Shown here: in pieces, positions 3,806-26,810 of the stretch
Layout of the letters: each line of letters begins with the position of its first letter
Numbering within the stretch: the stretch's first letter is position 1
Assembly: GCA_041738235.1 (NCBI GenBank)
Contig: JBGSQF010000006.1
Coordinates: 18,261-82,260, forward strand
Length of the DNA stretch: 64,000 bases
Source: Minisyncoccia bacterium
GTDB taxonomy: Bacteria; Patescibacteriota; Minisyncoccia; Moranbacterales; GCA-2747515
Direction: 5' to 3'
The notes under the pieces: generated by a model
Database searches by the model: none
Told to the model about the DNA's origin: nothing
What the model saw: the letters and a program-made list of their open reading frames with translations, nothing else
Made by a program: the position numbers and the translations under genes

Positions 3806-3842
3806 CACAAAGAGCATTTTGAAGAGTGTGGCAAAGATATAT

Positions 3843-3916
3843 GGCGATTATCGTCTAATGGTTAAGACATCGGTTTGTGGTACCGAGAATCTGGGTTCGA
3901 TTCCCAGTAATCGCCC
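3843..3916 (+). tRNA. tRNA-His (anticodon GTG) with genome-encoded G-1
   Basis: Acceptor gcgatta/taatcgc with an extra 5-prime G pairing C73; anticodon stem tcggt/accga, loop ttGTGgt. Confidence 0.9.
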
Positions 3917-3941
3917 AGGTAGGTCACTGGAAGATATAGGG

Positions 3942-4015
3942 GCGCCCGTAGCTCAGTGGATTAGAGTACTTGGCTTCGAACCAAGGGGTCGCAGGTTCGA
4001 GTCCTGCCGGGCGCA
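3942..4015 (+). tRNA. tRNA-Arg (anticodon TCG)
   Basis: Acceptor gcgcccg/cgggcgc, anticodon stem cttgg/ccaag, loop ctTCGaa, T-loop ttcgagt. Confidence 0.85.
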
Positions 4016-6745: not shown

Positions 6746-6757
6746 ACCTACAGTATA

Positions 6758-8173: not shown

Positions 8174-8774
8174 ATTCAGAAAGATTACGAATAGAAGCAA
8201 ATGATTGAAAATGAGTGGCCGCCGGAGAGGAACTGGGATTTATATCCACATAAAGATCAATACCGATCATACGAACTACACTAATAGAAAAACTCCCTGT
8301 CAACTCACTATTTCCATTATCATAAAAAGAGAACACGTCTCCCGGATATGGTTCGAAACCGTTTCTTACGTCCGACAAAAAAATACTGACCACTTCTTGA
8401 TTCGTCGGATAAGTAGCCGGACTTCCAACCGGATCAATAATCCCCATACGGAGATTTGTTCCATCAAGAAATATTCGAACACGTTCTATATCTCCATCTT
8501 CATCCTGATCAGCAAAAAAAATCACTTCGGTCGGATCGGCTAATTTCAGAGCATACTCTCCAGCATCTGACTGTCTCATATTCCGGAAAAGTGAAACTAG
8601 AGAGGTAACGGTCTGAGATGCTTTATACTGAGCCTGCGCACTATCTATGGCAAATTGTTGCAAAGGCCAAATATTTACAAAATACAGCACAACACCAAAC
8701 ATTGTCATAGATAATATCCCGATAGCAACGATCATCTCCACCAAGGAGAGTCCTTTGTAAAAATAGTTTTTCAT
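8157..8774 (-). CDS. Type IV pilin-like protein (class III signal peptide)
   Basis: MKNYFYKG|LSLVEMIVAIGIL is a prepilin cleavage motif with Glu at +5. An AAAGGAA RBS lies upstream of the ATG at 8774; the alternative start is 8795. Confidence 0.6.
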   Translation of the reverse strand: MKNYFYKGLSLVEMIVAIGILSMTMFGVVLYFVNIWPLQQFAIDSAQAQYKASQTVTSLVSLFRNMRQSDAGEYALKLADPTEVIFFADQDEDGDIERVRIFLDGTNLRMGIIDPVGSPATYPTNQEVVSIFLSDVRNGFEPYPGDVFSFYDNGNSELTGSFSISVVRMIGIDLYVDINPSSSPAATHFQSFASIRNLSEYDRAQ

Positions 8775-10170: not shown

Positions 10171-11394
10171 TTATTTTATATTATCCAAAACACTATACAT
10201 TGGCGTAAGCATGGCCACCGCAAAAAAACCAACCCCGGTTCCAATAACGATCATGAGCAATGGTTCTATAATAGATGACATATTTTTGGTCATCTGGTCC
10301 ACATCTGCTTCGTAGAATTCTGCCAATTTCAAAAGAACCTCTTCGGTCTTTCCCGTTGATTCTCCCACTTCAACTATCTGATACACCAAAGGAGGAAATA
10401 CCTTTGACCGAGAAATAGATTCACTCAGATTTATACCCTTTTGAACATCTTCCATGCTCCTCAAAATAGCAGTTCGATAAGCATAATTTGAAAGTGTTTC
10501 CGATATAACACGAAGAGCCTCAACAACAGACACACCACTTTTTAGAAGAGAACTGTATATACGAGCAAAACGAGCAGAGTTGGTCTTTATAACAATTTCT
10601 TTTACTACCGGAAAGTGCAACAAAAGAAACGAGATCACCCTCTTTCCAATTACCGTCTTAGCAAAAAGTGAAAGACAAATAATAATTACTACAACAGCAA
10701 TCGAAACAAGTATAGCGTGCCCCCTTAAAAAATTACTCACTCCGATAATGAACTGAGTGGACGCTGGTAACTTGACCTCCATATCTGAAAACACTGATGT
10801 GATCTTCGGCAAAATATAGGTCAGCATCAATACTCCAACACCGACCATAGCTGTCAAAATAACTGCGGGATACATCATTGCTCCACGAACTTTGCTGATC
10901 AGATCATGTTCTTTCTCTAGCTGAACCGATACGATCACCAAAACTTCTTCTAAATTTCCACCCAACTCTCCCACACGAACCATACTGACAAATAAATTAC
11001 TGAATATATCTGGATATTTTGCCAATGCATCGCCAAGTGGGGTGCCCGATTGGACTCTTTCCGCAATGTCATGAAGTGCTTTTTGGAACCGTTTATTTTT
11101 TGTTTGATTTACAAGAGTATTGATCGCCTTGGTGACCTGTACACCCGATGATATCATGACGCTCAAATTCCTTGCAAAAAGCATCTTGTCCTTTAAAGAA
11201 ACGCCTCCGAAAACCTTATCCATCAATCCCATTGTCTCAGCCGATTGACTCTCTTTCTCCTCCTCGTGAAACGTGAGTAGAAAACCCTCTGAACGCAACT
11301 GATGGAAAAGTGCGCTATCACTTTTTGCAAACATGCTTCCAGTACGCTCTTCTCCCGTGCTTATATTTTGGGCTGTAAATTTGTAATTCGGCAT
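10171..11394 (-). CDS. pilC: Type IV pilus inner-membrane platform protein PilC (GspF family)
   Basis: Two T2SSF-like repeats (LSVMISSGVQV.. and LLKSGVSVVEAL) and three TM segments; follows pilB. Confidence 0.8.
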   Translation of the reverse strand: MPNYKFTAQNISTGEERTGSMFAKSDSALFHQLRSEGFLLTFHEEEKESQSAETMGLMDKVFGGVSLKDKMLFARNLSVMISSGVQVTKAINTLVNQTKNKRFQKALHDIAERVQSGTPLGDALAKYPDIFSNLFVSMVRVGELGGNLEEVLVIVSVQLEKEHDLISKVRGAMMYPAVILTAMVGVGVLMLTYILPKITSVFSDMEVKLPASTQFIIGVSNFLRGHAILVSIAVVVIIICLSLFAKTVIGKRVISFLLLHFPVVKEIVIKTNSARFARIYSSLLKSGVSVVEALRVISETLSNYAYRTAILRSMEDVQKGINLSESISRSKVFPPLVYQIVEVGESTGKTEEVLLKLAEFYEADVDQMTKNMSSIIEPLLMIVIGTGVGFFAVAMLTPMYSVLDNIK

Positions 11395-11403: not shown

Positions 11404-13173
11404 TTATTCTTTGGTAACACGCAATATCTCCTCTATGGAGGTGATCCCGAGAGCTGCCTTGATCATACCATCCTCTACCATTGTATGCATACCTGCTTTT
11501 CTTGATTCTAACTCAATATCCTCAGAAGAGGCTTTCTCAACGATCATCCTCCTGATAGTATCGTCTACCTCCATTACCTCAAATACTCCGTTTCTCCCCC
11601 GATACCCCTCATTGTTACAGCGAGCACACCCTTGTGCTCGGTAAAAAGAAACGTCCTCCCATGTTTGAATTTTCTTTTGCTTTGCAACTGAAGATTTTTG
11701 TAAAACGGCAAGTATTTCTTTCATGTTGAAACTCTCTCCTAATGTCTTCAGTTCCTCGGATGTTAATACGTAGGACTTCCGACAATCCGGACATAATCTT
11801 CGCACTAGTCTCTGTGCAATAATGACGTTCAACGTAGTCGCGACCAAGAATGGTTCGGCGCCCATATCCAACATTCTTGGTATCGTGGCAACAGCACTAT
11901 TCGTATGGAGCGTAGAAAGCACAAGATGTCCTGTCATAGCAGCATGCATGGCAATTTCCATGGTCTCTCCATCACGTATCTCCCCTACCATGATAATATC
12001 TGGATCCTGACGTAGTAACGAACGAAGTGCTGCTGCAAACGTCATGCCAATTTTTGATACTACCTGCGTTTGATTGATGCGTTGCATTCGATATTCAACA
12101 GGGTCTTCTACAGTACTAATATTCACTTCCGGGGTGTTAAGAATATCAACTACCGTGTAGAGCGTGGTAGTTTTCCCAGAACCCGTTGGCCCTGTAACCA
12201 ATATCATCCCGTTCGGCTTTTTTACCTCTCGATGCATGACTTCCAGATCTCGTCCCTCAAACCCGATCTTTTCCAAAGTGAGTCCCTTGGATGATTCATC
12301 CAAAAGACGCATAACGATCTTTTCACCGTCAAACACCGGTAAAATACTCACACGAAAAGAGATCTTATACCCTTCAGTTTCTATTTTAAACCTCCCATCC
12401 TGAGGTAATCTATGCTCATCCAACTTTAAGTTTGACAGCACTTTTATACGAGCAACAATGCCTTGTTGTACACTTCTCGGTAAACTCATAGCATCATGCA
12501 ATACCCCATCGATACGATATCGAACAACTACTTCTCTTTCTGTTGGTTCAATATGAATATCACTCGCCTGTTGCAAAATTGCATGTTTCAACAACGTATC
12601 TACAATACGAATGACAGGAACGTCCTCAGCAACTTTCTCCAAACTTTTTACATCACCATCTTCCTCCGGCTGATCGCTCTTTGCAGACTCGGAAAGAGAC
12701 TCTACATCCTGATCGATCAAATCTCCAAATTCCGCTTGTAAACTTTTTTCATATTGTTTCAATATTTCCGTAATACTTTCCTGTGAAGTGAGACAGGGAA
12801 TGATACGGAGACCCGTCTTCTTTTGAATGAAATCGATCGTCTGTAAATCATTCGGATTGAGCATGGCAACTTTAAGATTGCTTCCCTCCTTCTCAAATGC
12901 AACAATATTATATTTCTTGGCAATTGGAGCTGGAATGATCTGTAAAATATTTACAGGAATCTCATTCTTTTCCAAGTTCACAAAAGGGATCCCCAAGATC
13001 AATGAGTAGATCTTTCGTAGCTTCGTATCTTGAATAAATCCTCCTTTCAATAACACTTCTCCCAAAGAAACACCCTCTTTTTGAGAGGTGTCCCACGAAG
13101 CCTTAAGATCTTCCTTATTAAGAAAGTCAGCCCCCTGAAGAAACTCATAAAGTTGTTTATCCTGAATCTTCAT
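11404..13173 (-). CDS. pilB: Type IV pilus assembly ATPase PilB (GspE family)
   Basis: N-terminal MshEN-like domains, Walker A VTGPTGSGKTTTLY, Asp and His boxes, and a tetracysteine cluster CPDC...CARC. Confidence 0.85.
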   Translation of the reverse strand: MKIQDKQLYEFLQGADFLNKEDLKASWDTSQKEGVSLGEVLLKGGFIQDTKLRKIYSLILGIPFVNLEKNEIPVNILQIIPAPIAKKYNIVAFEKEGSNLKVAMLNPNDLQTIDFIQKKTGLRIIPCLTSQESITEILKQYEKSLQAEFGDLIDQDVESLSESAKSDQPEEDGDVKSLEKVAEDVPVIRIVDTLLKHAILQQASDIHIEPTEREVVVRYRIDGVLHDAMSLPRSVQQGIVARIKVLSNLKLDEHRLPQDGRFKIETEGYKISFRVSILPVFDGEKIVMRLLDESSKGLTLEKIGFEGRDLEVMHREVKKPNGMILVTGPTGSGKTTTLYTVVDILNTPEVNISTVEDPVEYRMQRINQTQVVSKIGMTFAAALRSLLRQDPDIIMVGEIRDGETMEIAMHAAMTGHLVLSTLHTNSAVATIPRMLDMGAEPFLVATTLNVIIAQRLVRRLCPDCRKSYVLTSEELKTLGESFNMKEILAVLQKSSVAKQKKIQTWEDVSFYRAQGCARCNNEGYRGRNGVFEVMEVDDTIRRMIVEKASSEDIELESRKAGMHTMVEDGMIKAALGITSIEEILRVTKE

Positions 13174-13188: not shown

Positions 13189-14214
13189 CTATTTTATTTC
13201 ACAGTTACCCAACTTTCTCGGAAAAACCAAGAAGAAGGTTGTCCCTCGTCCTTTTTTCGACTCAAATCGAATGCTTCCTCCAACCCGATCCATAATCCTC
13301 TGGCATAAATTCAATCCCAATCCAACCCCCTCGGTATTTAATAACATGGCATTATCAGATCGAAAGAACTTTTCAAAGATCTTCCCCTGATGCTCTATGG
13401 GTATACCTATTCCCGTATCTTTGATATCCACCTCGATCTCTTTCTCCTTGTTACGTATGTAAAGAGATATCGTTCCAGACCGGTCTGTATACCGCAAAGC
13501 ATTAAGAAAGACGTTTTCTAAAACCATCTCTATTTTTCTTGCATCCCCGCAGGATTCTTTCTCTTCTCCAAATACTTCAAAAAGAAGTCGAATATTCTTT
13601 TGCTGTATATCCATGCGGTAACGGTCACAGACCTTTTTCATGAGATTCGAGATGTTTATACGCTCCTCATACCATCGAACTTCCCCACTTTCAAATCGAG
13701 ATACCATTAGAAACTCATCCACCATTCGTATAAGATGTTCGTTTGATAACTCAATACTGCGCATAGCCTCACGAGATCCATCATTTCCATCCCCACTATT
13801 TTTACTTCTACAAAGATCAATATGCCATTTTATCTGCGCAAGTGGCGATTTTAATCTATGTGACATAGCCGATATAAAATCACTCTTGAGCTTTCTAATA
13901 ACGGCGATCTCCTCTAACAAACGAATGATAAGACCTCCAATAAGCAGTGATGACATGACTATCCCAGATTCTATAAGAACTAGCGCCTCAGCATTATTAG
14001 AATAAGAAAATATAAGGTATGTTGCCCCCATGAAGAAAATAACCACAGCACCCAAAAGCAAAGAAAAAAACGCCGGCGTATGCCACAAGGAAACGCCGAG
14101 TTGTTTGGCCTGCTTTCGAAGGTCTAAACCTGACTCAATAGGAAGAAAAGGGGAATGCATATGTATCTTTTTTTTACTGTCAATTCTCTTTTTATTATAC
14201 CCTAAACACCACAC
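13189..14214 (-). CDS. Membrane sensor histidine kinase (HisKA plus HATPase_c), no cognate response regulator in the window
   Basis: H-box SAMSHRLKSPLAQI, N-box NALRYT, G-boxes DTGIGIP and GVGLGLNLC; TM helices at the N-terminus. Confidence 0.75.
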   Translation of the reverse strand: MWCLGYNKKRIDSKKKIHMHSPFLPIESGLDLRKQAKQLGVSLWHTPAFFSLLLGAVVIFFMGATYLIFSYSNNAEALVLIESGIVMSSLLIGGLIIRLLEEIAVIRKLKSDFISAMSHRLKSPLAQIKWHIDLCRSKNSGDGNDGSREAMRSIELSNEHLIRMVDEFLMVSRFESGEVRWYEERINISNLMKKVCDRYRMDIQQKNIRLLFEVFGEEKESCGDARKIEMVLENVFLNALRYTDRSGTISLYIRNKEKEIEVDIKDTGIGIPIEHQGKIFEKFFRSDNAMLLNTEGVGLGLNLCQRIMDRVGGSIRFESKKGRGTTFFLVFPRKLGNCEIK

Positions 14215-14232
14215 ACACCCCTAAGAGCAACT

Positions 14233-15540
14233 CTACTCAAAAAGTTTCTTATAGTTCTTCGACCAATACACAATGCCATTATAATAGGATGTATTGAACC
14301 CTCCAAGATAGTTGATCGATGCACTTTTTATAACTGATTCCTTGCTCGATGTGGCTCCTGCCTTTTGCAATTTAAGGGCCATAGCCATAACACCATCAGT
14401 AAGACTCCAGGGATCCGGTTTGCTATGACCCGTCTTTGATCGTACTGATGCTTCATATCCTTTCCATACGTCCGACATAAATTGAGAAACACCCATCGCG
14501 CCACCTTGACCAATATACCCACTTGGAGAACAAGAGACCTTTTTGTCCTTACTATAACCAAGCGTCTTCACGATCTCATAAAAAATATCTCTTCTTTTAT
14601 ACAGTAAATTTATCGATGATTGATATTTGGTTCCATACTTTTTATACCGGGCAACGGCAACCTTCTCCACCTCTTTGTAAGTACACTGTCCTGTGTTTGC
14701 TCCAAGATTCGTTTCCATCTTCAAAAATCCATACAACACCCCTTCAGGAACGCCCGTTTCATCACTCGCAAAATTCACCGCTTCACGGATGTCCTTCGCA
14801 TTAAATGACTTCCCGGTCAATATATTCAAATCACTTTCTAATTCCGCCAACTTTTTTTGCAGCTCTTCAATGGTCGCATCTTTCTCTGCTATATCAGACT
14901 GCGTTTCCTGCTTTGCTCCCAAAAGGTTATTCTTTTGGGAATTTTGAACAACAAGGAGTTGCTCCTTTTCCTTCTTGATATTATCTAGGTCCTCACGTTC
15001 TTTTTTGATATTTTCTTTTGTTTTAGATGATTCATCAATAAGCATGCCTATTCGCTCTTGCAGAGTAAGCACCTGATCCGATCCGTCTAATATCTGGGAC
15101 ATGCTTCCCTCATGAAACACCACTTCTGAAAGCGGAGTTTGCGAGGTATCATACATTAATTGCACCATATCCTGGAGCACTTTCTTTTGCTGACCAAGCT
15201 TCACCTCTAATTGAGCTATTTCTCCCTCCTTACGAGAGATCGTCTCTTGCGTGGTTTCAATGTGGGTCTTAGTCTCTTGTATTGCTCGCTGTGTTGCTGT
15301 CAAACTCCCATCGATCGCCTGGAGATTTTGAGAGAGACTCGTTTTTTCTTTGGTTACTTTATCGATCTTCTTCTCAAGATCTTTGATATCACCTTTTGTT
15401 TCGTCTATTTTATCGGGGTTTATCTCATCCGCCAAAGCTGGAAAAGAGATACAAAAAACTATCCCCAGACCTATCATTAAAAGACCTGAGAACAAGAAGG
15501 ATCCCCCCTTATCCTTGTGAGAATTATTCCAATGTTTCAT
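14233..15540 (-). CDS. Secreted coiled-coil protein with a C-terminal MltB-like lytic murein transglycosylase domain
   Basis: Signal peptide (LLMIGLGIVFCISFPALA), about 200 aa of heptad-rich coiled coil, then the GAMGVSQFMSDVW motif typical of MltB-family transglycosylases. Start set at MKHWNN (15540); the ORF track extends to 15591. Confidence 0.55.
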   Translation of the reverse strand: MKHWNNSHKDKGGSFLFSGLLMIGLGIVFCISFPALADEINPDKIDETKGDIKDLEKKIDKVTKEKTSLSQNLQAIDGSLTATQRAIQETKTHIETTQETISRKEGEIAQLEVKLGQQKKVLQDMVQLMYDTSQTPLSEVVFHEGSMSQILDGSDQVLTLQERIGMLIDESSKTKENIKKEREDLDNIKKEKEQLLVVQNSQKNNLLGAKQETQSDIAEKDATIEELQKKLAELESDLNILTGKSFNAKDIREAVNFASDETGVPEGVLYGFLKMETNLGANTGQCTYKEVEKVAVARYKKYGTKYQSSINLLYKRRDIFYEIVKTLGYSKDKKVSCSPSGYIGQGGAMGVSQFMSDVWKGYEASVRSKTGHSKPDPWSLTDGVMAMALKLQKAGATSSKESVIKSASINYLGGFNTSYYNGIVYWSKNYKKLFE

Positions 15541-15626
15541 GCCTAAAGTATAGCACATTTTTTCAATTTTTGAAAAACAAAAGACCCGCAATGGAACTAT
15601 GCGGGTCTTTTTCCTTGAAAACTAGA

Positions 15627-16058
15627 CTATTTCAATTCTACAGTTGCACCAGCAGCCTCAAGTTTCTTCTTTAACTCCTCTGCCTCTTCTTTCTTTACAG
15701 CCTCTTTGATCACCTTTGGAGCAGCATCTACCATATCCTTCGCCTCTTTCAAGCCCAACCCTGTAATCTCACGAACCGCCTTAATTACATTAATCTTCTG
15801 ATCTCCTGCAACCTTCAGCTCCACATCAAATTCCGTCTTCTCTTCTACTGCCTCACCCGCACCGGCAGCAGCAGGCATTGCCCCCATCATCATAGGAGCA
15901 GCAGCACTCACACCAAACTTATCTTCCAAGACCTTTACAAGCTCAGACAGATCCAGAACGCTCATCTTCTCGATCTCGCTCACGATACCTTGAAACTTAG
16001 CTGGCACTTCCACTGCCTTTGCCTCAACCTGCTCATCCGCCTTTGTTACTTCTGTCAT
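15627..16058 (-). CDS. rplL: 50S ribosomal protein L7/L12 (with about 20-aa N-terminal extension)
   Basis: Core [18 protein letters not shown] ... [25 protein letters not shown]. Confidence 0.85.
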
Positions 16059-16120
16059 ACGATTATTGTTACTTATTACGATAGTTAATTATATATCTTG
16101 CACCATCATCACTACATACT

Positions 16121-16648
16121 CTATTTCTTCTCCTCAATAGCATGAAGCACCGTTACCAAGCCACGCAAATTGCCACCCAATACCCGAACAAATCCTGAAA
16201 TAGGTGCCTGTATTGTTCCCACAACCTTAGCCAACATCTGTTGCTTACTCGGCATCTTCGCCAATGCCTCAACACTATGGGCAAAAAGCATTTTCTTTTC
16301 CAAGACTCCACCGAGAATACGAATATTTTTGTTGGTCTGAGAGAATTCATGTACCGCCTTGACCGCACCCACCTCATCCTCTTGAGAAAAAATAACCGCG
16401 ATCTGTCCGTCCAAAACCTTTTCATCAATTTCTATACCCGCCTCTTTGCCAATTCTCGAGATCAAGGTCTTTTTTACCACTCGAAATGTACCTCCCGCAT
16501 CTCGTAGCTTCTTCTTTAATGCTCGTGTGTCAAAAACGTTCAAACCTCGATAGTCAACAAACACCACTGACTTAGCTGTCTTCGCCTGATCCGACATCTC
16601 AGAAACCAGTGTTTCTTTTTGTGCTCGTGTAAGCATAAATTTTTCCAA
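16121..16648 (-). CDS. rplJ: 50S ribosomal protein L10
   Basis: MLTRAQKETLVSEMSDQAKTAKSVVFVDYRGLNV.. is the typical L10 N-terminus, and rplL lies immediately downstream. Confidence 0.85.
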   Translation of the reverse strand: MEKFMLTRAQKETLVSEMSDQAKTAKSVVFVDYRGLNVFDTRALKKKLRDAGGTFRVVKKTLISRIGKEAGIEIDEKVLDGQIAVIFSQEDEVGAVKAVHEFSQTNKNIRILGGVLEKKMLFAHSVEALAKMPSKQQMLAKVVGTIQAPISGFVRVLGGNLRGLVTVLHAIEEKK

Positions 16649-16855
16649 AGGAAATTAAAAAACGGACTTTTCTGTCCGATCCCGTGTGAAACAATTAAGA
16701 GAAAATTTTTGAAATATTTGCTCTATTACATTGCCTCGGTAGGACTTATTACCCTTTCGGATACGCCTCTTCAACCTGTGTTGAAGTCCCTTGCAGGAAC
16801 GGTCATCGGACATATTCAATTGTAAAATATTCTATCAGCACCACTATTTTTACCT
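16649..16855 (-). promoter_or_regulatory. rplJ 5-prime leader region (possible L10 autoregulatory leader)
   Basis: A 207-nt untranslated gap upstream of rplJ with a hairpin (cttcaacacaggttgaag). Assigned by position; structure not verified. Confidence 0.25.
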
Positions 16856-17239
16856 CTACTTGGCAGGTTCAGCCTTTGTGTCCTCCTCAACTTTATCACT
16901 TTCCACCTGCGCACTCTCAGGCAACCCTTCCTTTACCGCTTCTGCTACCTCCTGAACATTTTCCTCTACTTTTGGTCGTTCCATCTTTACTGCTCGTTTT
17001 TTTCCTTCAACCACGCCTTGAGCAACCAAAAGGTTATATACCGTATCAGAAGGCTGAGCCCCTTGTCCTAACCAGTGCAATATCCGATCATTTTCCAAAA
17101 CCGCGACCTTCTTATGTGGATCCCAGCTTCCAACCATTTCTACATGCCTTCCACCAGGTGCGACCGTCTTCTCCTGCACCGCAATACGAAAATGCGATCG
17201 ATTCTTCCGTCCTGTTCTATTGAGTCGAATTACCAACAT
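16856..17239 (-). CDS. rpsP: 30S ribosomal protein S16 with acidic C-terminal extension
   Basis: MLVIRLNRTGRKNRSHFRIAVQE.. is an S16 core (about 80 aa); an extra Glu-rich tail of about 45 aa follows. Confidence 0.8.
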   Translation of the reverse strand: MLVIRLNRTGRKNRSHFRIAVQEKTVAPGGRHVEMVGSWDPHKKVAVLENDRILHWLGQGAQPSDTVYNLLVAQGVVEGKKRAVKMERPKVEENVQEVAEAVKEGLPESAQVESDKVEEDTKAEPAK

Positions 17240-17337
17240 AAATATACCACAAATAATATACAGTAAACAAAAACGGCCTTCGCCTTTTTCTTACTGCCCT
17301 ACTTTACAGCCATTCATAAATTCTGTCAAGACCCCTT

Positions 17338-20300
17338 TCACACCAGCCACTTCTTCACCAACAATCCACCTTTTTCCATAGTGATAGTGTCTTGAGCATC
17401 TCTGGATTCCCCTGTAGCAGGATTTTGGACAGAGACTTTAACAGTATATACTCCAGCCTCAAGAAAAATAAGATAGCGCCCATGTTCATCAGCCATAGTT
17501 CTTGAAAGCATGCGCTCGTTTTTATCAAATACCGAGATAGTGGTAAACACAAGTCCCTTTTGGGAAAATCTTTCCTTAGAAACTACTTCTCCCCACTGAC
17601 GACTCTTATTTGTAAACTGCCTCACAAAGAAGAGGGCAATGTTAAAGAGTAAAAGCACCCAATAGGCAAGGTTACCACGATCAATAATAACAGCATACAT
17701 GGTCCAGAAAAAACTCACCACAAAAACAATAAAGAAAAAGGAATTGAGCCATACAGAAACATTAAAGAAACCAAGAAAACTAGAGGACCTTCTGATATCC
17801 GGCTTTCTTACAAGTATATTACAACGAATAAACTCTTTATTGGTTACCACAATGGGATCTCCCCGGTAAATATTAGTAATAAAAATAGAAGAGTTCTGTG
17901 TTTCTTTTTCAAAGGTATACCCTTCCTTCTCTGCTTGGATGGTGTAGGTACCGGGATCGACCAGAAAGCCGAAGCGTCCGAGCCTATCGGAGATGATGAC
18001 CTGTTTCTTTTGGGTCTGTTGGTTGATGAGCGTTAACGTGACGTAAGAAAGGATATTGCCCGTATTGGCGTCATAGGTCGTTCCCCAGGATCGTTTTCGA
18101 CGAAAGAACCCAACGATCCCGAAAGCACTTACCATTTGTTGTGTCAAACCTCGCGCAGTTAAGAGCCCAGGAGAAAATACCGACCCAAAAGATCGAAACA
18201 ACGTAGCTATGACCGCTGCTAACGTCAGTGTCTCAGCCGAAGACTCAGGATCCTTCGCCATCTCCTTGACAGCTGCAATAGCAGAACTTCCCATATTATC
18301 AATAAACTCTGGAGTAACTGCTGTAACTGCATGTCCAAGAGTACGAAGTCCTTTTGCAACTACTTCCTCTTGTGTTTGCTTTTGAATTTCATCACTCTTT
18401 AAAACAAAGGTTTTTGTTTCTGACCCTTCCGATGTCATATTGTTCTCATCGGTATAGGTAACATAAATAGTATGAACTCCCTGCTCAATGTCCTTATCCT
18501 TCATAACATATTCAATACTCCAGTGAGTATCAGCGCGCCCCGTAAAGCTAAAAGGACTAGAAAAAATATAAGCGGTAAGCGACCCAGGACCATCGGCCAT
18601 CCCCTTAACAATAAGTGTAGAATCTTTTCTCTCTATAGAAGTAACAGTTGGTGGTTTAGGAATGACGGTAACATTGAGAGAAGCTGTTCTTTTGACAGAT
18701 GTTGCGCTTGTAACACTTGCTTCTACAACATGAAGACCAGTGGTAGGGAACCTATAAGCAAAAGAATTCTCTTTGGAAACCACAACACCATCGACCGCCC
18801 AGGCATATGTATACGTACCGCTTTTATCTGGAAAGACTTGAAAGGTCGCCTCTTGCCCCTTTTCAAGTCGTTCTCTTGACGATGAGGCAGAGACGGAGAA
18901 ATTCTCTTCCTCACTATCCTTTTCTGGTATTATAATACGCCTCCCATTAGAGAATGCGCTCCTCGTTGACCCCTTATAAGCTCTCACGCGATATGTATAA
19001 GTCGCTCCAGGAACAAGAGTTTCAGTATCAATATATAGGATCTTATTCTTTTTGACAGTGGCGATCTCCTTAAAAGCATCACTCCCCTGTCTTCGTTGAA
19101 TACTATAACCATTCTCTAAATCAGTGTTGTCTTGCCATACAAGTCGAATGCCCTTCTCAACCCGCCTAATCCTGAGATTGGTGGGGCGTTGCTCTTGATC
19201 AACAAGAGAGAGCGCTTTTCTATAGATAGTTCCCGCATCACCTGATTGATATCCATTTCCTCCATCAACATTCTTAGTTCCTGTAAAAGTGCTTCTGTTA
19301 TAGTAAAGTGCAATTCTTCCCCCGCCTCCACCACCACCATGCGATCCTCCAACACCTCCCCGAGCACTAATAGATCCGCTCCCAGCAAATAAATTAGCTT
19401 GAAGATGCACAGACCCACCGGAACCACCCCCAGCATAGTCTCCCTCTCCGTCACTCCCATCCGCCACAATACTTCCACCAAGACTTATAGGGCCTGTCAC
19501 CGCTATTTTGACGGCTCCTGCTCCCGATCCACTCAATTGTGCGTCTCCAGATCCCCCACTTGACCCAATATCTGTTGGTTGTGTATCCGAACCGTACGAA
19601 GATCCTCCAAAAGTAGATGAATGGTCACCCACACCCCCCCTTCCTCCGAATCCGCCTCCGCCACCGCCAAAACCCCTCCCGGGACCATTTCCTTCACCAA
19701 AAGAGGTGGAAGTTCCAATATATCCCTTCCCGCTTACATCTATCTTCCCTCCCACATTGATCACAAGCCTTGCAAGAGAAAGATTGATCCCCTTGGTTTG
19801 GTTAACAACGTTAGCTTGATGCGTAAGAGTACCCCCTTTCGCAACCCGCATAGAATTAAAAGAAACTGCTGGTCCCAAGATATCTTGATTCTGAAATTCC
19901 ATGATCCCAAGAACAATAATATCCTTAATAGGCTGAACATCTCCAATGGCAGGATTAACACCATTTTCATACCAGGTAACATTTGCAGAAATAGTTAATG
20001 TAGATTGATAATGGTTATAGATGCCATTGTTAGTGATACTTGCAGCAGTCAACAAGGAAAGTTTTTCTTTCACAGTGATTGTGTAATCGTGCGCGATGAC
20101 ATATCTAGCTGAACCACGAACAGTGAGATGATTAAATACTGACGATTCAACAATGGTCGTAGTGGATCCAGAAACAGCACCATTTCCAACAACAAGATCC
20201 CCATACGTAGCAGAATTTGATTTGATAAAAATAGTTCCAGCCCCCCCTCGCTGATAGCCCGCTCCGCCAAATGCAGTCCTTATTCCATTAAAAGTATCGT

Positions 20301-21192
20301 CATTCGCATAATAAATAGCCAACCTTCCACCACCTCCGCCACCCTCCTCAGTTCCTCCAGAAGCACCCCCGTCAACTCTAATATCACCACTGCCGGCAAG
20401 TGTGCCCACAGTAAGATAGATAGATCCTCCTGATCCGCCTCCAGCGTCACCACTTCCATCACTCCCCTTCGAATAAATATTTCCCTCTATAGTAAGTGTT
20501 CCGGAAACATTCAATCTTATGACACCACCACCAGACCCACCAATACCGCTATAAGCCCCTCCGCTCGATCCAATGTCCGTTGGCTGGGCAACAGAACCAT
20601 ACGTGACACCCCCAACCGCTTCAGATGCATTTCCTCCATTACCACCGAAACCAGCACCGGAACCGGTAGAAGACCCCTTTACTCCTTTTCCTGGTCCATT
20701 ACCATTATCGGCACTTGCCCCCGCATACCCCTTTCCCGTCACACTTACTGTTCCACCACTTCTTACCGTCATATCACCTCCCACCTCTAGAAAGAGAGAA
20801 TGGATATGTGTAGTAGTATTGGCTGTATGTGTAAGTATTCCCAACTCTCCGATAATGACATCATTCGTAACAATAAGCTTTTTCGTATCTACATCTCCAT
20901 TCTCGATGGTAAAAGTCGAAGTTGTATTCTCTCCAATTGAAAGCGACTGTATTGTTATGGGTCCACCAGAAAGATCGATCGTCGGTTGATTCGTGCCTCC
21001 GTCTATGACAACGTCATCACCACTTTGGGGAGTGGTTGAAGCACAACTGCTCCAGTTAGAAGAGTTGCTCCAGTCTGTAGAAGAAGATCCTGTCCAAGTA
21101 CAGGTACCTGCATAAACCGGAAGTGCGCCAGAAAAAACCCCAAACACACTGAGGTAAAAAAATATAAAAAGAAAGTTTTGTTTTTTCTGCAT
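17338..21192 (-). CDS. Giant (1284 aa) secreted/membrane-anchored surface protein: signal peptide, two tandem Gly-rich beta-solenoid-like modules, FN3/PKD-like region, TM helices flanked by carboxypeptidase-regulatory-like domains
   Basis: Signal peptide FLFIFFYLSVFGVFSGALPVYA. A duplicated module of about 200 aa (..GKGY.G..GNGPG.G....YGS..QPTDIGSSGG...GSDG.GD.GGGSGGS..L.....GSG.I...GG..GGGGGGR.A.YY..) occurs twice. TM cluster FFFIVFVVSFFWTMYAVII. Two CarbopepD_reg-like segments (GTYTIQAEKEGYTFEKE and GVYTVKVSVQNP). Confidence 0.6.
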   Translation of the reverse strand: MQKKQNFLFIFFYLSVFGVFSGALPVYAGTCTWTGSSSTDWSNSSNWSSCASTTPQSGDDVVIDGGTNQPTIDLSGGPITIQSLSIGENTTSTFTIENGDVDTKKLIVTNDVIIGELGILTHTANTTTHIHSLFLEVGGDMTVRSGGTVSVTGKGYAGASADNGNGPGKGVKGSSTGSGAGFGGNGGNASEAVGGVTYGSVAQPTDIGSSGGAYSGIGGSGGGVIRLNVSGTLTIEGNIYSKGSDGSGDAGGGSGGSIYLTVGTLAGSGDIRVDGGASGGTEEGGGGGGRLAIYYANDDTFNGIRTAFGGAGYQRGGAGTIFIKSNSATYGDLVVGNGAVSGSTTTIVESSVFNHLTVRGSARYVIAHDYTITVKEKLSLLTAASITNNGIYNHYQSTLTISANVTWYENGVNPAIGDVQPIKDIIVLGIMEFQNQDILGPAVSFNSMRVAKGGTLTHQANVVNQTKGINLSLARLVINVGGKIDVSGKGYIGTSTSFGEGNGPGRGFGGGGGGFGGRGGVGDHSSTFGGSSYGSDTQPTDIGSSGGSGDAQLSGSGAGAVKIAVTGPISLGGSIVADGSDGEGDYAGGGSGGSVHLQANLFAGSGSISARGGVGGSHGGGGGGGRIALYYNRSTFTGTKNVDGGNGYQSGDAGTIYRKALSLVDQEQRPTNLRIRRVEKGIRLVWQDNTDLENGYSIQRRQGSDAFKEIATVKKNKILYIDTETLVPGATYTYRVRAYKGSTRSAFSNGRRIIIPEKDSEEENFSVSASSSRERLEKGQEATFQVFPDKSGTYTYAWAVDGVVVSKENSFAYRFPTTGLHVVEASVTSATSVKRTASLNVTVIPKPPTVTSIERKDSTLIVKGMADGPGSLTAYIFSSPFSFTGRADTHWSIEYVMKDKDIEQGVHTIYVTYTDENNMTSEGSETKTFVLKSDEIQKQTQEEVVAKGLRTLGHAVTAVTPEFIDNMGSSAIAAVKEMAKDPESSAETLTLAAVIATLFRSFGSVFSPGLLTARGLTQQMVSAFGIVGFFRRKRSWGTTYDANTGNILSYVTLTLINQQTQKKQVIISDRLGRFGFLVDPGTYTIQAEKEGYTFEKETQNSSIFITNIYRGDPIVVTNKEFIRCNILVRKPDIRRSSSFLGFFNVSVWLNSFFFIVFVVSFFWTMYAVIIDRGNLAYWVLLLFNIALFFVRQFTNKSRQWGEVVSKERFSQKGLVFTTISVFDKNERMLSRTMADEHGRYLIFLEAGVYTVKVSVQNPATGESRDAQDTITMEKGGLLVKKWLV

Positions 21193-21225
21193 TACCCGAA
21201 CTATTAAAAAATTTTACTGAATAAA

Positions 21226-21234
21226 ATTATACCA
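21226..21234 (-). promoter_or_regulatory. Extended -10 promoter element (TGgTATAAT) for the giant surface-protein gene
   Basis: The minus-strand sequence tggtataat lies about 35 nt upstream of the start codon at 21192. Confidence 0.4.
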
Positions 21235-21280
21235 CAAAAAAAAGAATTTCTCTACTAAAATACAGTTCATTAAATATAGT

Positions 21281-21316
21281 AAAAAGACCACCCCTTTAGT
21301 AAGGTGGTCTTTTTTA
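21281..21316. terminator. Intrinsic terminator downstream of the GH1 gene
   Basis: agaccacc-cctttagtaa-ggtggtct stem, flanked by an A-run and a T-run. Confidence 0.5.
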
Positions 21317-21424
21317 AAATCTATTTTATGGCCCCACCTCCTGAAACCCATCGGACAAACCTTAAAAACAAGACAATCACCAAAATGATCGATCGCAGTT
21401 TTACAGATCGCCTTGTACAAAAAA

Positions 21425-22675
21425 CTAATTCATCTGATCATCTCGTATAATATCTTTATACACGTGGAAACTCTTTCTCGGTTTCCGTTCGAGTGTTTTT
21501 CGATCTATTTCAACAAGGCCAAATTTTGGCCAGAATCCTTTATCCCATTCAAAGTTGTCCATAAGTGACCAATGGAAATATCCTCGCACATCAACTCCCT
21601 CACTTACCGCCTTTTTTACCGAGGCAATACGTTTTCGCAAGAATTCTCCACGTAGATGATCGTTCGCATCTGCCAAACCGTCTTCCGTCACATACAGTGG
21701 TACACCAACTTTCGCATACTGTTTCAAGATCCCTTTCAATCCTTCAAGATCTACCCCCCATCCCAGATCTGACCGATCTTCCCGCAATTTTACCGATCCA
21801 AACAGACTAACACGAATAGAGAGATAATTCTGCACACCCAAGAAATCATATTTCCCAATAACGCGAGCTAAAAATTGTTCATTCCCCCAATATCTGACAC
21901 AAGCCGAGATCGATCGACTTAAAAAGTATCTCTTTTGGAACTTAAAGGATGTAAGAAACTCTGTGAAACCTACTTGAGCACTTGGATGTATCACTTTCAC
22001 ATCTTGATACGCTCTGGTATGCGCCTTTGCCAGATTTTTATACCCACGTAAAGCCAAAAAAATATTCTTCTTCTGCGGTGGCCACTGTCCCGTTATGTAT
22101 CCATTAGTAATTATACTGTTTGGTTCATTGAAGGTCATAAAGAAAACCACATCCTCCTTCAAAACCTCTACCATCTTCTGAGCATACCGAGAAAACATCT
22201 CAGAGAAATCTTGAGCAAGGATCCCGCCTCTACGTGACAACCAAACAGGCAATGTCCAATGCCAGAGCGTAACAAATGGTTCCAGACCTTTCATGCGAAG
22301 TGCCTTTACCACATCCTTATAATGTCTTAAGGCATCCTCATCGAAAACACCCTCCTCCGGTTCCACTCGCGACCATTCGATAGAAAAACGATGCGCATTA
22401 TGACCACCTTCTCGCACAAGGTCAAAGTCCTCTTCATAGCGATGATAGTGATCGCATGCGATCCCCGAAATATAATTCTTCACATCAAACATCTCAGGAA
22501 ACTTTTTCTGCTGCCAAGGTTCCCATCTTCTCTTCGCCTCATAGACAAGACGATCTGCATTCTCCCGTTCCCATTTAGACCAATCATTTTGTGTATTCCC
22601 CTCTACCTGATGAGCAGAGGTGGCAGCGCCCCAATAAAAAACACTTGGATCTATTTCTGTTTTTGATCGTTCCAT
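21425..22675 (-). CDS. Glycoside hydrolase family 1 (beta-glucosidase / 6-phospho-beta-glucosidase-like)
   Basis: N-terminal FYWGAATSAHQVEGN, acid/base motif TFNEPN, nucleophile region YVTEDG; 416 aa. Confidence 0.8.
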   Translation of the reverse strand: MERSKTEIDPSVFYWGAATSAHQVEGNTQNDWSKWERENADRLVYEAKRRWEPWQQKKFPEMFDVKNYISGIACDHYHRYEEDFDLVREGGHNAHRFSIEWSRVEPEEGVFDEDALRHYKDVVKALRMKGLEPFVTLWHWTLPVWLSRRGGILAQDFSEMFSRYAQKMVEVLKEDVVFFMTFNEPNSIITNGYITGQWPPQKKNIFLALRGYKNLAKAHTRAYQDVKVIHPSAQVGFTEFLTSFKFQKRYFLSRSISACVRYWGNEQFLARVIGKYDFLGVQNYLSIRVSLFGSVKLREDRSDLGWGVDLEGLKGILKQYAKVGVPLYVTEDGLADANDHLRGEFLRKRIASVKKAVSEGVDVRGYFHWSLMDNFEWDKGFWPKFGLVEIDRKTLERKPRKSFHVYKDIIRDDQMN

Positions 22676-22709
22676 AATCTCTATCTCTTATTCCATCGAG
22701 GCCTGTTAC

Positions 22710-24899: not shown

Positions 24900-26810
24900 T
24901 CAGCTATCAGACTCTTCCCTTGAGGCCTTTTGTAACAGTGTCTTAACTGCATTGATATCGGGTTCTGAGCGCTTTCTCAGAGGTTTGAATCTCTTAGGGG
25001 CCACATGATGCATCTGGGAAAGACGCATAGGTTCATCACGCGTTATATATGCCACAGGCTCTACATTTTGCTCAAGTTTTACTGTTTCCTCACGAGATGA
25101 TTTTGCAATAACAACGTTCTCCACCGTTGTTTTGACCACACTCGATCCAGATGCAACTTGAGTCTTCGCCATCGTCCGCTGGTATTCCTTGAGACACTCT
25201 TTGCAAAAAGTTGGGCGACGCCCATCTGGCACGAATGGAAGTTGTATCTTCAGCCCACAAGTGTCACAAAATGCATCGTACAAAACCCTCTCCGACGTAC
25301 GTCCTTCTTTTTTTACCTCTTCTTTTGGTAGAGAAACGGATGTCGATGCCACAACATTTTTCGTTCCTCCAGGCACGTCTTTTTTGACCAACTTCCGTGG
25401 TTGAGCAATAGAACTCGAAATTCTTTCAACAGAAGCAACTTCTCGCCTCCTTGGCGACAAAGGGTTCTTATGATCAGCCAAAGAAGCTTCCCTGCTGGGT
25501 TCTTGGACTGTCTGTACTGGCGGAGCAAATACACCACTCCATTCTCTGATTCCCTCTTCTACATCTTCTTTTGAGTAAGAATAAGATTCACGAGAACTGC
25601 CTATAACATCCTCAGAAACATCCTGTACATTCTCTGTCTCGATCGGAGGCAAGGTTGTCGCACTAAAAGCATCTCCAGCAATACCATCAATCATGAGCTT
25701 TAGATAAATGTGGTACTTTGGCAGATTGACCACATCATTCATCATGAAAACCGGCTCGAATTCTTTCTCCAAAAATTCAGCATCCATGGCTCCAACACGA
25801 AACGCGATGAGCGTCCCTGCATTTCCAAAAATAGCATCCCGCACGATCTCATCGATCTGGGTCACATATTGATTTGCAAGAATAAGGTTCAGACGATACT
25901 TTCTCGCCTCAGAAAGAATGTTGGCAAATGATTCCGTGGCAAAGTTTTGAAACTCATCTACATAGAGGTAAAAATCATTTCGAACATTTTCAGGAATATC
26001 CACTCGAGCCATTGCCGCCATCTGTATCTTCGTGATCATCATAGCTCCTAAAAGAGCACTGTTATCTTCTCCGATCCGTCCCTTTGCAAGATTGAGTATC
26101 AAGATCTTTCTGTTATCCATCGCTTCACGGATATTAAAAGACGATTTTGTTTGTCCTACAATATTACGGATCAAGGAGGTAGAAAGGAATTGTCCTACCT
26201 TGTTCTGGATAGGCGAGATCACTTCCTGCAACACTCGGTCATTCCACTTTGAAAATTCATCTACCCAAAACGACTTAACAACGGGATCGGTAACGCAATT
26301 GACCACCTGTGCACGATATTTTTTATCCACCAAAATGCGCATGACTCCCAATAAGGTACTTCCTGGATATTCCAGCAAAGCAAGGATGGCATTGCGTAAA
26401 ATATATTCAAGTCGCGGTCCCCATGACTCAGCCCACAGTTTTTTAAATACTCCTATCAGTCCAGATGCTACCAAATGCCGATATTCCGGGGCTACCTGCT
26501 CCATCACATTGAAAGCGATCGGAAACGCCTGGTCTGCAGGATTAAAATAGATCACATCTTTTATTCGATCCGGTGGGATCATTCGTATAAGTTTCTCAGC
26601 CGTATCTCCGTGCGGGTCAACATATGCCACACCGTGTCCATTTTGAATATCCTGCAAAACCAAATGTTCCAAAAGATTGGTCTTTCCCATTCCAGTCTTT
26701 CCAATGATGTACATATGTCGCCTTCGATCATCCGTCTTGATACCAAAAATAGCCTCCTGTCCACGGAAGTTTGTTTTGGCAAAATACGTTATATCATGAG
26801 ATTGAGGCAT
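24900..26810 (-). CDS. Soluble TraD/VirD4-HerA-superfamily ATPase (type IV coupling-protein-like) with C-terminal CxxC..CxxC zinc ribbon
   Basis: HMYIIGKTGMGKTNLLEHL (Walker A) ... VAYVDPHGD (the DPxGD box of TraD/TrwB/HerA) ... FYLYVDEFQNF (Walker B) ... CDTCGLKIQLPFVPDGRRPTFCKEC. No N-terminal TM anchor. Confidence 0.6.
   Translation of the reverse strand: MPQSHDITYFAKTNFRGQEAIFGIKTDDRRRHMYIIGKTGMGKTNLLEHLVLQDIQNGHGVAYVDPHGDTAEKLIRMIPPDRIKDVIYFNPADQAFPIAFNVMEQVAPEYRHLVASGLIGVFKKLWAESWGPRLEYILRNAILALLEYPGSTLLGVMRILVDKKYRAQVVNCVTDPVVKSFWVDEFSKWNDRVLQEVISPIQNKVGQFLSTSLIRNIVGQTKSSFNIREAMDNRKILILNLAKGRIGEDNSALLGAMMITKIQMAAMARVDIPENVRNDFYLYVDEFQNFATESFANILSEARKYRLNLILANQYVTQIDEIVRDAIFGNAGTLIAFRVGAMDAEFLEKEFEPVFMMNDVVNLPKYHIYLKLMIDGIAGDAFSATTLPPIETENVQDVSEDVIGSSRESYSYSKEDVEEGIREWSGVFAPPVQTVQEPSREASLADHKNPLSPRRREVASVERISSSIAQPRKLVKKDVPGGTKNVVASTSVSLPKEEVKKEGRTSERVLYDAFCDTCGLKIQLPFVPDGRRPTFCKECLKEYQRTMAKTQVASGSSVVKTTVENVVIAKSSREETVKLEQNVEPVAYITRDEPMRLSQMHHVAPKRFKPLRKRSEPDINAVKTLLQKASREESDS

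Follow-up and report, generated by a model that had tools for sequence, protein, structure and literature searches.

A two-module glycine-rich protein of Candidatus Moranbacteria with a predicted beta-helix fold and a recurrent Patescibacteria anchor, from a large unnamed family

Described beta-helix and glycine-rich surface proteins

Among described systems, beta-helix adhesins of the two-partner and autotransporter types are one of the closest comparisons to a 1284-aa protein encoded in the stretch of DNA analysed here (64 kb, hereafter the window). They include the secretion domains of FHA, HMW1, EtpA and HxuA and the passengers of Ag43, pertactin, IcsA and Hap. Whereas these adhesins are built from coils of 19-25 aa, the repeat unit of the window protein is a glycine-rich supermodule of 225 aa, and the protein further differs from them in its Patescibacteria host, its C-terminal membrane helices and the absence of a family match in Pfam and NCBIfam. 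Similarity to FHA-like TpsA proteins is found at the fold level only; no TPS (Haemagg_act) domain was detected in residues 1-690 at E <= 1. Unlike type V autotransporters, the protein has neither a C-terminal beta-barrel nor an Autotransporter Pfam match, and ends instead in helices and CarboxypepD_reg sandwiches.

Other glycine-rich or repetitive proteins resemble the window protein in single respects. RTX beta-roll and RsaA-type S-layer proteins are likewise secreted or surface glycine-rich beta-solenoids with glycine at the turns, but the RTX nonapeptide GGxGxDxUx is absent here (0 matches), PF00353 gives no match, and the rungs are ~33 aa long rather than 18. The autotransporter-associated beta strand repeat, PATR (PF12951, TIGR02601), is a ~32-aa repeat and so resembles the ~33-aa rungs of the module; PATR profiles matched neither the protein nor the isolated modules, even at E <= 10. 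The Caldicellulosiruptor tapirins (6n2b, 4wa0, 6n2c) align with the model over only 160 residues, at 14-15% identity and Foldseek E 0.5-1.8, and they lack both the glycine-rich motifs and the modular repeats of the window protein. The sole curated model that touches the module is the AgmC N-terminal domain (NF047640) of myxobacterial adventurous gliding motility. In two family proteins, P0100 and P0005, part of a module matches its positions 232-409 with E values of 2e-5 and 4e-5, but at 23-24 bits these matches stay below the cut-off of 275, and no match at E <= 1 was obtained with the window protein.

Gene layout and C-terminal anchor

The open reading frame announced by an earlier, sequence-only reading of the window was present at full length, and its product is probably a Sec-exported surface protein of Candidatus Moranbacteria (Patescibacteria/CPR), a group to which all the best named DnaB matches belong, at 72-78% identity (Moraniibacteriota/Moranbacteria). 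The parts of the gene, with the evidence for each, are as follows.

17338..21192, minus strand: whole gene, 1284 aa (ORF); predicted secreted, membrane-anchored surface protein
21109..21192, minus strand: putative signal peptide, residues 1-28 (MQKKQNFLFIFFYLSVFGVFSGALPVYA), read from sequence
20869..21108, minus strand: N-terminal lead, residues 29-108 (sequence and AF2 model)
20194..20868, minus strand: module 1, residues 109-333 (self-alignment, family HMM, AF2)
20241..20247, minus strand: poly-G(7) on the coding strand, codons CGA GGG GGG GCT, residues 315-318 (RGGA), in module 1
19858..20193, minus strand: spacer, residues 334-445 (AF2 and alignment with P0100)
19165..19857, minus strand: module 2, residues 446-676, anatomy as in module 1 (self-alignment, family HMM, AF2)
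19634..19640, minus strand: poly-G(7) on the coding strand, codons AGG GGG GGT, residues 518-520 (RGG), in module 2
18949..19185, minus strand: fn3-like domain, residues 670-748 (Pfam PF00041, 22.1 bits, under the cut-off of 25)
18670..18900, minus strand: PKD domain, residues 765-841 (Pfam PF00801, 24.4 bits, cut-off 23.5)
18103..18237, minus strand: one or two hydrophobic helices (986-1005, 1014-1028), residues 986-1030, ending RRKRSWG
17809..18084, minus strand: first CarboxypepD_reg beta-sandwich, residues 1037-1128 (Pfam and AF2)
17611..17784, minus strand: two predicted transmembrane helices (1137-1170, 1175-1194), then KSRQWG, residues 1137-1194
17377..17592, minus strand: second CarboxypepD_reg-like beta-sandwich, residues 1201-1272 (Pfam and AF2)

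The signal peptide combines a KK n-region, a hydrophobic core (mean Kyte-Doolittle value 2.05) and a putative VYA-type cleavage site, read by eye rather than with a predictor. It is followed by a lead of the pattern C-x-W-x-G...D-W...N-W...P...DDVVIDG...DTKKLIVTNDV, modelled by AF2 as short beta strands with a pLDDT of ~50-90 per 10-residue block, lowest at the N-terminus. This lead is kept in P0100 and P0043, and its first ~60 residues are also N-terminal in many other metagenomic proteins. One database entry, P0001, which lies on a 111,649-bp NCBI contig, is identical to the 1284-aa protein, and its 90% cluster is a singleton. The gene neighbours are rpsP, GH1 and DUF2339, an operon context that is not informative.

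Downstream of the modules, the FN3/PKD-like segments and the two CarboxypepD_reg domains proposed from sequence were recovered, the fn3 match staying under its cut-off. CarboxypepD_reg (PF13620) scored 52.2 bits over two stretches, the best being 1037-1093 (gathering cut-off 32.3), and weak matches of NOMO models at 1210-1258 fall in the second domain. In contrast, the proposal that three transmembrane helices are bracketed by these two domains did not hold, as the order is one or two helices, CarboxypepD_reg, two helices and CarboxypepD_reg again. Residues 1174-1253 repeat residues 1015-1087, so that helix plus domain form a unit repeated in tandem. For residues 930-1284 (355 residues, 6 homologs), the AF2 model reached a pLDDT of only 58, which does not fix the side of the membrane on which the CarboxypepD_reg domains lie, and the predicted transmembrane helices number 3 or 4.

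The same region is colinear, with BLASTP E values from 5e-29 to 6e-11, with eight other Patescibacteria proteins (P0123, L003, P0128, P0126, P0130, P0132, L005 and P0137), two of which, L003 and L005, are multi-module giants with the same anchor. Invariant motifs of the aligned anchors are W-G, D..GRFGFL.PG.Y and Y.G (alignment A2). The C-terminal topology had been described as odd; its conservation in other Patescibacteria proteins shows that it is nothing exceptional. Judged from these alignments, the Patescibacteria anchor is a recurrent unit of helix, (R/K)xxWG and CarboxypepD_reg, present twice and not peculiar to this gene. Such a recurring, lineage-typical anchor could be used to list the Patescibacteria surface proteome.

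Module fold, family and probable role

Module 1 opens with an entry strand (LTHTAN...), continues with a ~70-aa glycine-loop part of the pattern GKGY..GNGPG..GFGGNGG..YGS..QPTDIGSSGG and three ~33-aa rungs that start at GGSGGG-VIRL, GGGSGGS-IYL and GGGGGG-RLAIYY, and exits at GGAGTIF; module 2 follows the same plan. Compared with the consensus of 820 modules, both copies carry all family motifs in order, the signature being GxGY, GxGPG, GGGGYGG, YGS..P...GSGGG, GGxGGG-aIxL, GGGSGGS-IxL, GGGGGGR-IA and GGAGTIY. The AF2 model of residues 28-690 reached a pLDDT of 81 and a pTM of 0.81; most of each module exceeded 90, and the strand pairs were regularly spaced at 33 residues. The earlier guess of a beta-solenoid-like unit, for which an AlphaFold-type prediction had been proposed, is thus borne out at the level of the model, in which the module fold is a parallel beta-helix, or beta-solenoid. 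The ~70-aa glycine-loop part has high pLDDT yet is almost without DSSP strand; a polyglycine-II bundle was set aside for it, its glycines apparently recurring with period 2 (GxGxGxG) and not 3. The first ~40 residues of the spacer prolong the beta strands, but ~60 residues (~375-435) lie at pLDDT <50, so that the two modules as one continuous rod are not secure.

No solved structure related to the module by sequence was detectable. A PDB sequence search gave chance-level matches only (a nanobody at E 0.6 with the single protein, FlgG at E 0.034 with a 33-sequence profile), and Foldseek of the model against PDB gave no match below E 0.1. Giant-virus glycine- or collagen-like proteins of BFVD were matched at a low TM of 0.2-0.3 and judged uninformative. 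Neither Pfam nor NCBIfam contains a model for the module: residues 1-690 of the whole protein had no match at E <= 1, and the isolated modules gave nothing relevant in Pfam at E <= 10. A tblastn search of both modules against 50,697 phage records returned no match, and a scan of the contigs of GTDB representatives with the single protein found no relative.

The family is nevertheless large, with 14,851, 10,139 and 5,327 cluster representatives at 50% identity for E <= 1e-3, 1e-10 and 1e-30, respectively. Proteins of the family are up to 6.5 kaa long, with as many as 14 matched stretches and between 1 and about 14 module copies. Among the best 120 matches, 75 carry 7 copies and 39 carry 6, with a period of 261 aa, while family proteins of Patescibacteria and DPANN have 1-4 copies with periods of mostly 310-360 aa. 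Hosts include Verrucomicrobiota, in which the module is very common, Planctomycetota, Desulfobacterota, Patescibacteria, DPANN archaea and others. A module found in more than 10,000 protein clusters and more than a dozen phyla, CPR and DPANN included, is still without a Pfam or NCBIfam model or a solved relative. Proteins that carry it are labelled hypothetical or named for minor flanking domains, some under the generic NCBI name 'beta strand repeat-containing protein', and a curated model would help to annotate thousands of giant surface proteins.

We thus regard the window protein as an ordinary member of a large unnamed family, presumably of surface fibres or adhesins. In the reading that we favour, with a probability of roughly 60%, it is a Sec-exported protein held in the membrane, with an inherited two-module beta-helix rod, an fn3/PKD stalk and a helix/CarboxypepD_reg anchor. 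The N-terminal ~650 residues would form the outer rod of two ~225-aa glycine-rich modules, turning at GGGSGGS, GGGGGGR and A-N-G-G motifs. Behind it, the Ig-like fn3 and PKD domains and a helical linker would provide the stalk, and the C-terminal helices would hold the protein in the cell membrane. With export, this orientation and the stalk-and-rod geometry all presumed, the most likely role would be that of a rigid surface-projecting fibre or adhesin touching other cells or particles. In the ultra-small Patescibacteria, which presumably depend on a host, the obvious place to look for attachment factors is among large surface proteins.

An S-layer or envelope-lattice component, its beta-helix head tiling the surface and its C-terminal helices tethering the lattice to the membrane, is an unlikely alternative. 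Beta-helix S-layer proteins with exchangeable anchoring domains have been reported in Pseudomonadota and Verrucomicrobiota, as have S-layer proteins of Patescibacteria (bioRxiv 10.1101/2024.05.28.596244), and the frequency of the module in Verrucomicrobiota agrees with such a role. Caulobacter RsaA was also among the weak Foldseek matches (6p5t), but at E about 2 this is not significant, and the protein has neither the RTX/RsaA-type GGxGxD nonapeptide nor a HemolysinCabind Pfam match. Moreover, 1-14 copies and giant sizes suit fibres better than lattice subunits.

About as unlikely is a bolder proposal, in which the ~225-aa unit would be a distinct beta-solenoid family without a model in the curated libraries searched. 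Its glycine-loop half, modelled with confidence yet poor in strands, would have a separate structure or function, for instance ion binding or contact with a ligand. The two-module head and its conserved spacer would then travel as a mobile cassette between large-genome bacteria on one side and episymbiotic Patescibacteria and DPANN archaea on the other, serving the latter two as a host-contact organ.

It is improbable that the beta-helix is an enzyme, namely, a polysaccharide lyase or hydrolase of the pectate-lyase fold acting on host or environmental glycans. The GH1 glycosidase gene directly upstream (21425-22675) would fit such an activity, but the positions that at least 70% of the 820 modules conserve include no acidic or otherwise plausible catalytic residue. 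The non-glycine ones are L, V, I, A, S, N, R, F, Y, P and T, and look structural (aliphatic stack residues, turn Asn, Ser, Arg and Phe). Up to ~14 repeats per protein would also be unusual for a catalytic domain, and no glycan-active Pfam family matched the module even at E <= 10.

Origin and divergence of the two module copies

The sequence-only reading had treated the repeat as an internal tandem duplication; it is not private to this protein, as its unit belongs to a very large family with 1 to ~14 copies per protein. Within the 820 modules, module 2 is only the rank 15 match to module 1, and module 1 the rank 5 match to module 2. Module 1 is closest to the first modules of P0043 and P0100 (P0043_m1, P0100_m1), and module 2 to P0043_m3 and P0100_m2. 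P0100, which comes from an unrelated genome of 4-5 Mb, aligns colinearly with residues 28-690 (52% identity), lead and spacer included, the latter sharing the pattern NNGIYNH...TWYENG...EFQNQ. Because the sister copies are not each other's closest relatives and the layout is common to P0100, the two-module head was probably inherited as such from an older multi-module ancestor rather than duplicated in the Moranbacteria gene. A metagenome scan with an alignment of the head found no close ortholog, the best match being 44% identical.

Duplication within the gene of this lineage, with copy number or expression still varying through recombination or poly-G(7) slippage (phase variation), is very improbable. 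In its favour, P0043 has two nearly identical adjoining units, which shows that units have recently been duplicated within the family, and Logan assemblies of SRR28170473/4, from the same population, are interrupted on either side of the ectodomain-coding region. The gene contains two of the three G/C homopolymers of at least 7 in the 64-kb window, and a one-base change in either tract would truncate the protein at residues 349-553. However, three such runs per 64 kb are close to the base-composition expectation (an estimated ~3), and both tracts are glycine codons. The poly-C(7) run pointed out earlier is indeed present within module 2 (19634-19640), and the poly-C runs give no sign of a special meaning, being plain glycine-codon runs. 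Each module is, again, nearer to modules of other proteins, and the DNA copies have diverged too far for homologous recombination between them to be expected. In the codon alignment, 56% of bases and 36% of third positions are shared, the latter near random; the codon is the same for only 37 of the 105 identical residues, and blastn found short patches only (E >= 0.005). The likeness is therefore confined to the protein level and the duplication is old, as had been concluded from sequence.

At that level, two recognisable copies of one ~220-aa glycine-rich module were confirmed, and every motif previously listed as shared appears in their alignment. Residues 110-327 and 446-662 are 47% identical over 224 columns, with BLAST E values, taken from split-sequence comparisons, of 5e-56 uncorrected and 1.6e-25 composition-adjusted. 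The Smith-Waterman score was 478, against 110 +/- 12 in 500 residue shuffles (z = 29.9), and an HMM built from 818 modules of other proteins recovered both copies, 110-329 at 209 bits (E 5e-66, HMM positions 2-225) and 446-662 at 186 bits (E 6e-59, HMM positions 2-223), with no third copy in the 1284 aa. Self-alignment thus revealed similarity beyond glycine content, as 51 of the 142 columns without glycine in either copy (36%) are identical. Lead (28-120) and spacer (325-460) show no significant similarity (E 0.22), so a duplicated unit can be demonstrated only for the ~220-aa module and not for the full 337-aa period.

That the repeat is a compositional artefact of two low-complexity stretches, each ~28% glycine, is refuted by these tests, since SEG masking with composition adjustment lowers the BLAST match sharply, to 39.7 bits, but corrected E values still range from 2e-8 to 1.6e-25, and the 30-SD excess over shuffles, the identity in non-glycine columns and the independent HMM all tell against it. 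With the repeat real and the fold guess right, the outcome for the window is mostly a tidying-up. The antisense proline-rich ORFs attributed to the glycine-rich module both exist; the one at 20573-20989 is 20% proline, whereas that at 19621-19998 has only 10%.

The internal repeat and its age

The 1284-aa surface protein described in the sequence-only reading is encoded by an ORF at 17338..21192 on the minus strand, and the stretch in which that reading had placed one module twice (19180-20850) corresponds to protein residues 115-670. Upon BLASTP comparison, residues 110-327 (module 1) and 446-662 (module 2) aligned with 47% identity over 224 columns. In the two-fragment comparison the E value was 5e-63 uncorrected for composition and 2e-8 once SEG masking and composition adjustment were applied; split-sequence comparisons gave 5e-56 uncorrected and 1.6e-25 with composition adjustment alone. 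Since both regions contain 28% glycine, residue shuffles were used as an additional test. The Smith-Waterman score was 478, against 110 +/- 12 in 500 shuffles (maximum 166; z = 29.9), and 51 of the 142 columns in which neither residue is glycine were identical (36%), excluding a similarity of glycine content only. Furthermore, a profile of 818 modules, all from other proteins, matched exactly two stretches of the surface protein, 110-329 (209 bits) and 446-662 (186 bits), and detected no degenerate third copy.

The proposal that the similarity survives at the protein level only, and hence that the duplication is ancient, was also borne out. Codon-aligned DNA of the two modules had 56% of bases in common, and 36% at third positions; of the 105 identical residues, only 37 are encoded by the same codon. 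Comparison of the two DNA copies by blastn returned short patches only (E >= 0.005).

Fold and spread of the module

No Pfam-A or NCBIfam model covered the module in the whole surface protein at E <= 1, nor did any match the isolated modules at E <= 10. Its multi-module relatives likewise lacked a module model, apart from two homologous proteins (P0100 and P0005) that faintly matched the AgmC N-terminal model NF047640; this is the lone curated model to touch the module, at 23-24 bits, far below its cut-off of 275. No related PDB sequence was detected with either the single protein or a 33-sequence profile as the query. Residues 28-690 were modelled with AlphaFold2 from an alignment of 32 two-module stretches of homologs. 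The mean pLDDT was 81 (pTM 0.81), with values mostly above 90 across both modules and below 50 only at about residues 375-435, within the spacer that separates them. In the C-terminal half of each module, DSSP assigns a long strand and a short one that return at intervals of ~33 residues (at protein residues 224, 257, 290, and then 320), with rungs opened by the motifs GGSGGG-VIRL, GGGSGGS-IYL, and GGGGGG-RLAIYY. High confidence was also reached for the first ~70 residues of each module (GKGY..GNGPG..GGNGG..YGS..QPTDIGSSGG), which contain almost no regular strand in the model. Structural neighbours were Candida Awp adhesins and autotransporter passengers, followed at lower rank by pectate lyases, tailspikes, and ice-binding proteins. 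Foldseek gave no match with E <0.1. By its modelled structure, the module is a beta-solenoid without a close solved relative, in line with the fold first guessed from its sequence.

A word-indexed search retrieved 1218 proteins. The best 120 of these were mostly 1,900-2,200 aa long and came from Verrucomicrobiota, Planctomycetota, and relatives; they carried 7 copies of the module in 75 proteins and 6 in 39, and the period, 261 aa, hardly varied (5th-95th percentile 249-273). When 1.84 billion cluster representatives were searched exhaustively with a profile, 14,851 proteins matched at E <= 1e-3, 10,139 at <= 1e-10, and 5,327 at <= 1e-30, among them proteins 4,000-6,500 aa long in which as many as 14 stretches matched. 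In GTDB species genomes, with module counts verified separately, the module occurred in Verrucomicrobiota, Planctomycetota, Lentisphaerota, Kiritimatiellia, Desulfobacterota, Alpha- and Gammaproteobacteria (including the cultured Spongiibacter thalassae), Bdellovibrionota, Myxococcota, Omnitrophota, Auribacterota, Armatimonadota, Elusimicrobiota, and Chloroflexota, as well as in several Patescibacteria lineages (Moraniibacteriota, Doudnabacteria, and Saccharibacteria) and DPANN archaea (Aenigmatarchaeota, Woesearchaeota, and Nanoarchaeota). Patescibacteria and DPANN proteins have 1-4 copies and a longer period, mostly 310-360 aa, which the 337-aa period of the surface protein resembles. The repeat is thus real and was read correctly from the sequence, as was its fold, but the surface protein is an ordinary representative of a very large family for which Pfam-A and NCBIfam have no model, and its repeat is not a peculiarity of this gene.

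Origin of the two-module head

The duplication had been taken as internal to the surface-protein gene, a view that the ranking of 820 modules did not sustain. Module 1 was closest to the first modules of the homologs P0043, P0002, and P0100, with module 2 only 15th; module 2 was closest to the third and second modules of P0043 and the second of P0100, with module 1 ranking 5th. A neighbour-joining tree agreed with these rankings, although its branches are long. More telling still, P0100 is colinear with residues 28-690 at 52% identity, N-terminal lead and spacer included: the lead motif …DTKKLI.TNDV.IG..G.LTHTAN… is common to both, and the otherwise unique spacer is conserved as N.GIYNH…LTWYENG…IGD.QPI.DII..G..EFQNQ. 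Within the surface protein, lead and spacer showed no significant similarity to each other. From the module ranking and the colinearity with P0100 it follows that the two-module head with its spacer either predates the divergence of these lineages' genes or moved between them.

P0100, the closest relative of the two-module head, has 905 aa and is encoded in a 4-5 Mb genome by the first ORF of a giant fn3/Laminin_G gene that has been broken up; P0043 consists of three 330-aa units, then other domains and a peptidoglycan-binding domain. In the P0100 loci of JGI metagenomes (L084-L087, on contigs of up to 4.2 Mb), the stretch from 6001-8718 onwards resembles one giant surface gene of the fn3/Laminin_G_3 type, which is interrupted by a stop following codon 905 and also by a Transposase_mut insertion, whose position differs between samples. 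The lead motif, W.G....W....NW......P...DDV.I (residues 29-90, window 20923-21108), recurs alone in loci L092-L112, where it opens many metagenomic proteins that are otherwise unrelated; beta-helix surface proteins may commonly be capped by it at the N-terminus.

Anchor and proposed working of the surface protein

The surface protein begins with an evident N-terminal signal peptide. Module 2 is followed by an fn3-like domain and then a PKD domain, as the sequence had suggested, and by a long predicted helix at about 933-979. The C-terminal anchor (residues 986-1272; 17377-18237, minus strand) is arranged as follows:

Residues 986-1005 and 1014-1028: hydrophobic helices, ending in RRKRSWG
C-terminal of these: first CarboxypepD_reg sandwich
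Residues 1137-1170 and 1175-1194: helices, then KSRQWG
After KSRQWG: second CarboxypepD_reg sandwich

Helices and domains thus alternate, and the topology first proposed, with transmembrane helices bracketed by two CarboxypepD_reg domains, gives way to a tandem unit of hydrophobic helix, (R/K)xxWG, and CarboxypepD_reg (1015-1087 versus 1174-1253, E 8e-4), the sole further internal repeat in the split-sequence self-comparison. The same anchor, with invariant W-G and GRFGFL.PG.Y, recurs in Patescibacteria proteins whose ectodomains are of quite another kind (P0123, P0126, P0128, P0130, P0132, and P0137) and in two multi-module giants, L003 (Moraniibacteriota, >4,280 aa, four modules) and L005 (Doudnabacteria, 2,833 aa, three modules). 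By the positive-inside rule, the basic residues that follow the helices point to three membrane spans and would put both sandwiches in the cytoplasm, an unusual arrangement. Four spans are favoured by the extracytoplasmic location that such domains usually have. The AlphaFold2 model of this part had a pLDDT of only 58. A second CarboxypepD_reg-containing protein (8785-10158, minus strand), whose N-terminal hydrophobic segment resembles a pilin leader, adjoins the type IV pilus genes pilC (T2SSF, 10171-11394) and pilB (T2SSE, 11404-13173) on the same strand.

The analyses show the repeat and its age, the fold class, the family, the order of domains, and the conserved anchor; how the protein works is inferred. 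Most likely, it would be exported via Sec and stay attached through its C-terminal helices. The Ig-like domains and the long helix would form a stalk, and the beta-helix head of 650 residues a stiff fibre that projects from the cell and mediates contact. Host-dependent Patescibacteria are expected to attach via large surface proteins; we infer adhesion for this reason, and because the structural neighbours are adhesins and the whole family has surface-protein architectures. An S-layer-type lattice protein is a less well supported reading, for which there is a precedent in known S-layer proteins that combine a beta-helix with exchangeable anchors (bioRxiv 10.1101/2024.05.28.596244). An enzymatic beta-helix is likewise less well supported: glycines apart, the residues that 70% or more of the 820 modules conserve are L, V, I, A, S, N, R, F, Y, P, and T, a composition of stacks and turns and not of an active site. 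A still-variable repeat also fares less well than the adhesive fibre: no evidence of phase variation was seen, and the three G/C runs of 7 or more bases in 64 kb are about what base composition predicts (an estimate).

Two of these runs are poly-C(7) tracts, the one already noticed at 19634-19640 and a second at 20241-20247, both Arg-Gly-Gly codon runs on the coding strand (AGG/CGA GGG GGG); the third, a poly-C(8) at 55831-55838, lies just upstream of an ORF at 55039-55818 (minus strand). The antisense ORFs regarded as Pro-rich artefacts are indeed by-products of GGN codons, but only one reaches 20% proline, the other 10%. Scans of genome contigs and metagenomes found no close relatives of the surface protein. 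Short-read assemblies of SRR28170473/4 contain identical flanking genes and break at both ends of the ectodomain-coding part (17922-21265), Logan contigs L081 and L083 covering 21266-22702 and 13646-17921, respectively; these breaks are consistent with repeat-induced or strain-induced fragmentation.

The window belongs to a Patescibacteria genome of Moranbacteria type: the best named matches of DnaB (40068-41417), at 72-78% identity, were all from Candidatus Moraniibacteriota/Moranbacteria, and the gene content (rpsP, rplJ, rplL, pilB, pilC, LytR, and a VirD4-like ATPase) agrees. The VirD4/TrwB-like coupling ATPase (24900-26810, minus strand) carries a treble-clef zinc finger (PF23477) at its C-terminus and is surrounded by genes that are otherwise of the housekeeping kind. 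The 64-kb window has two tRNA clusters, each of four genes (3629-4015, plus strand; 42864-43740, minus strand); rRNA and other Rfam families were not detected in it. GC skew was negative in all 2-kb windows of 1-64000 (-0.10 to -0.27), including the plus-strand block at ~34-42 kb, and this absence of a switch places the whole window on one replichore.
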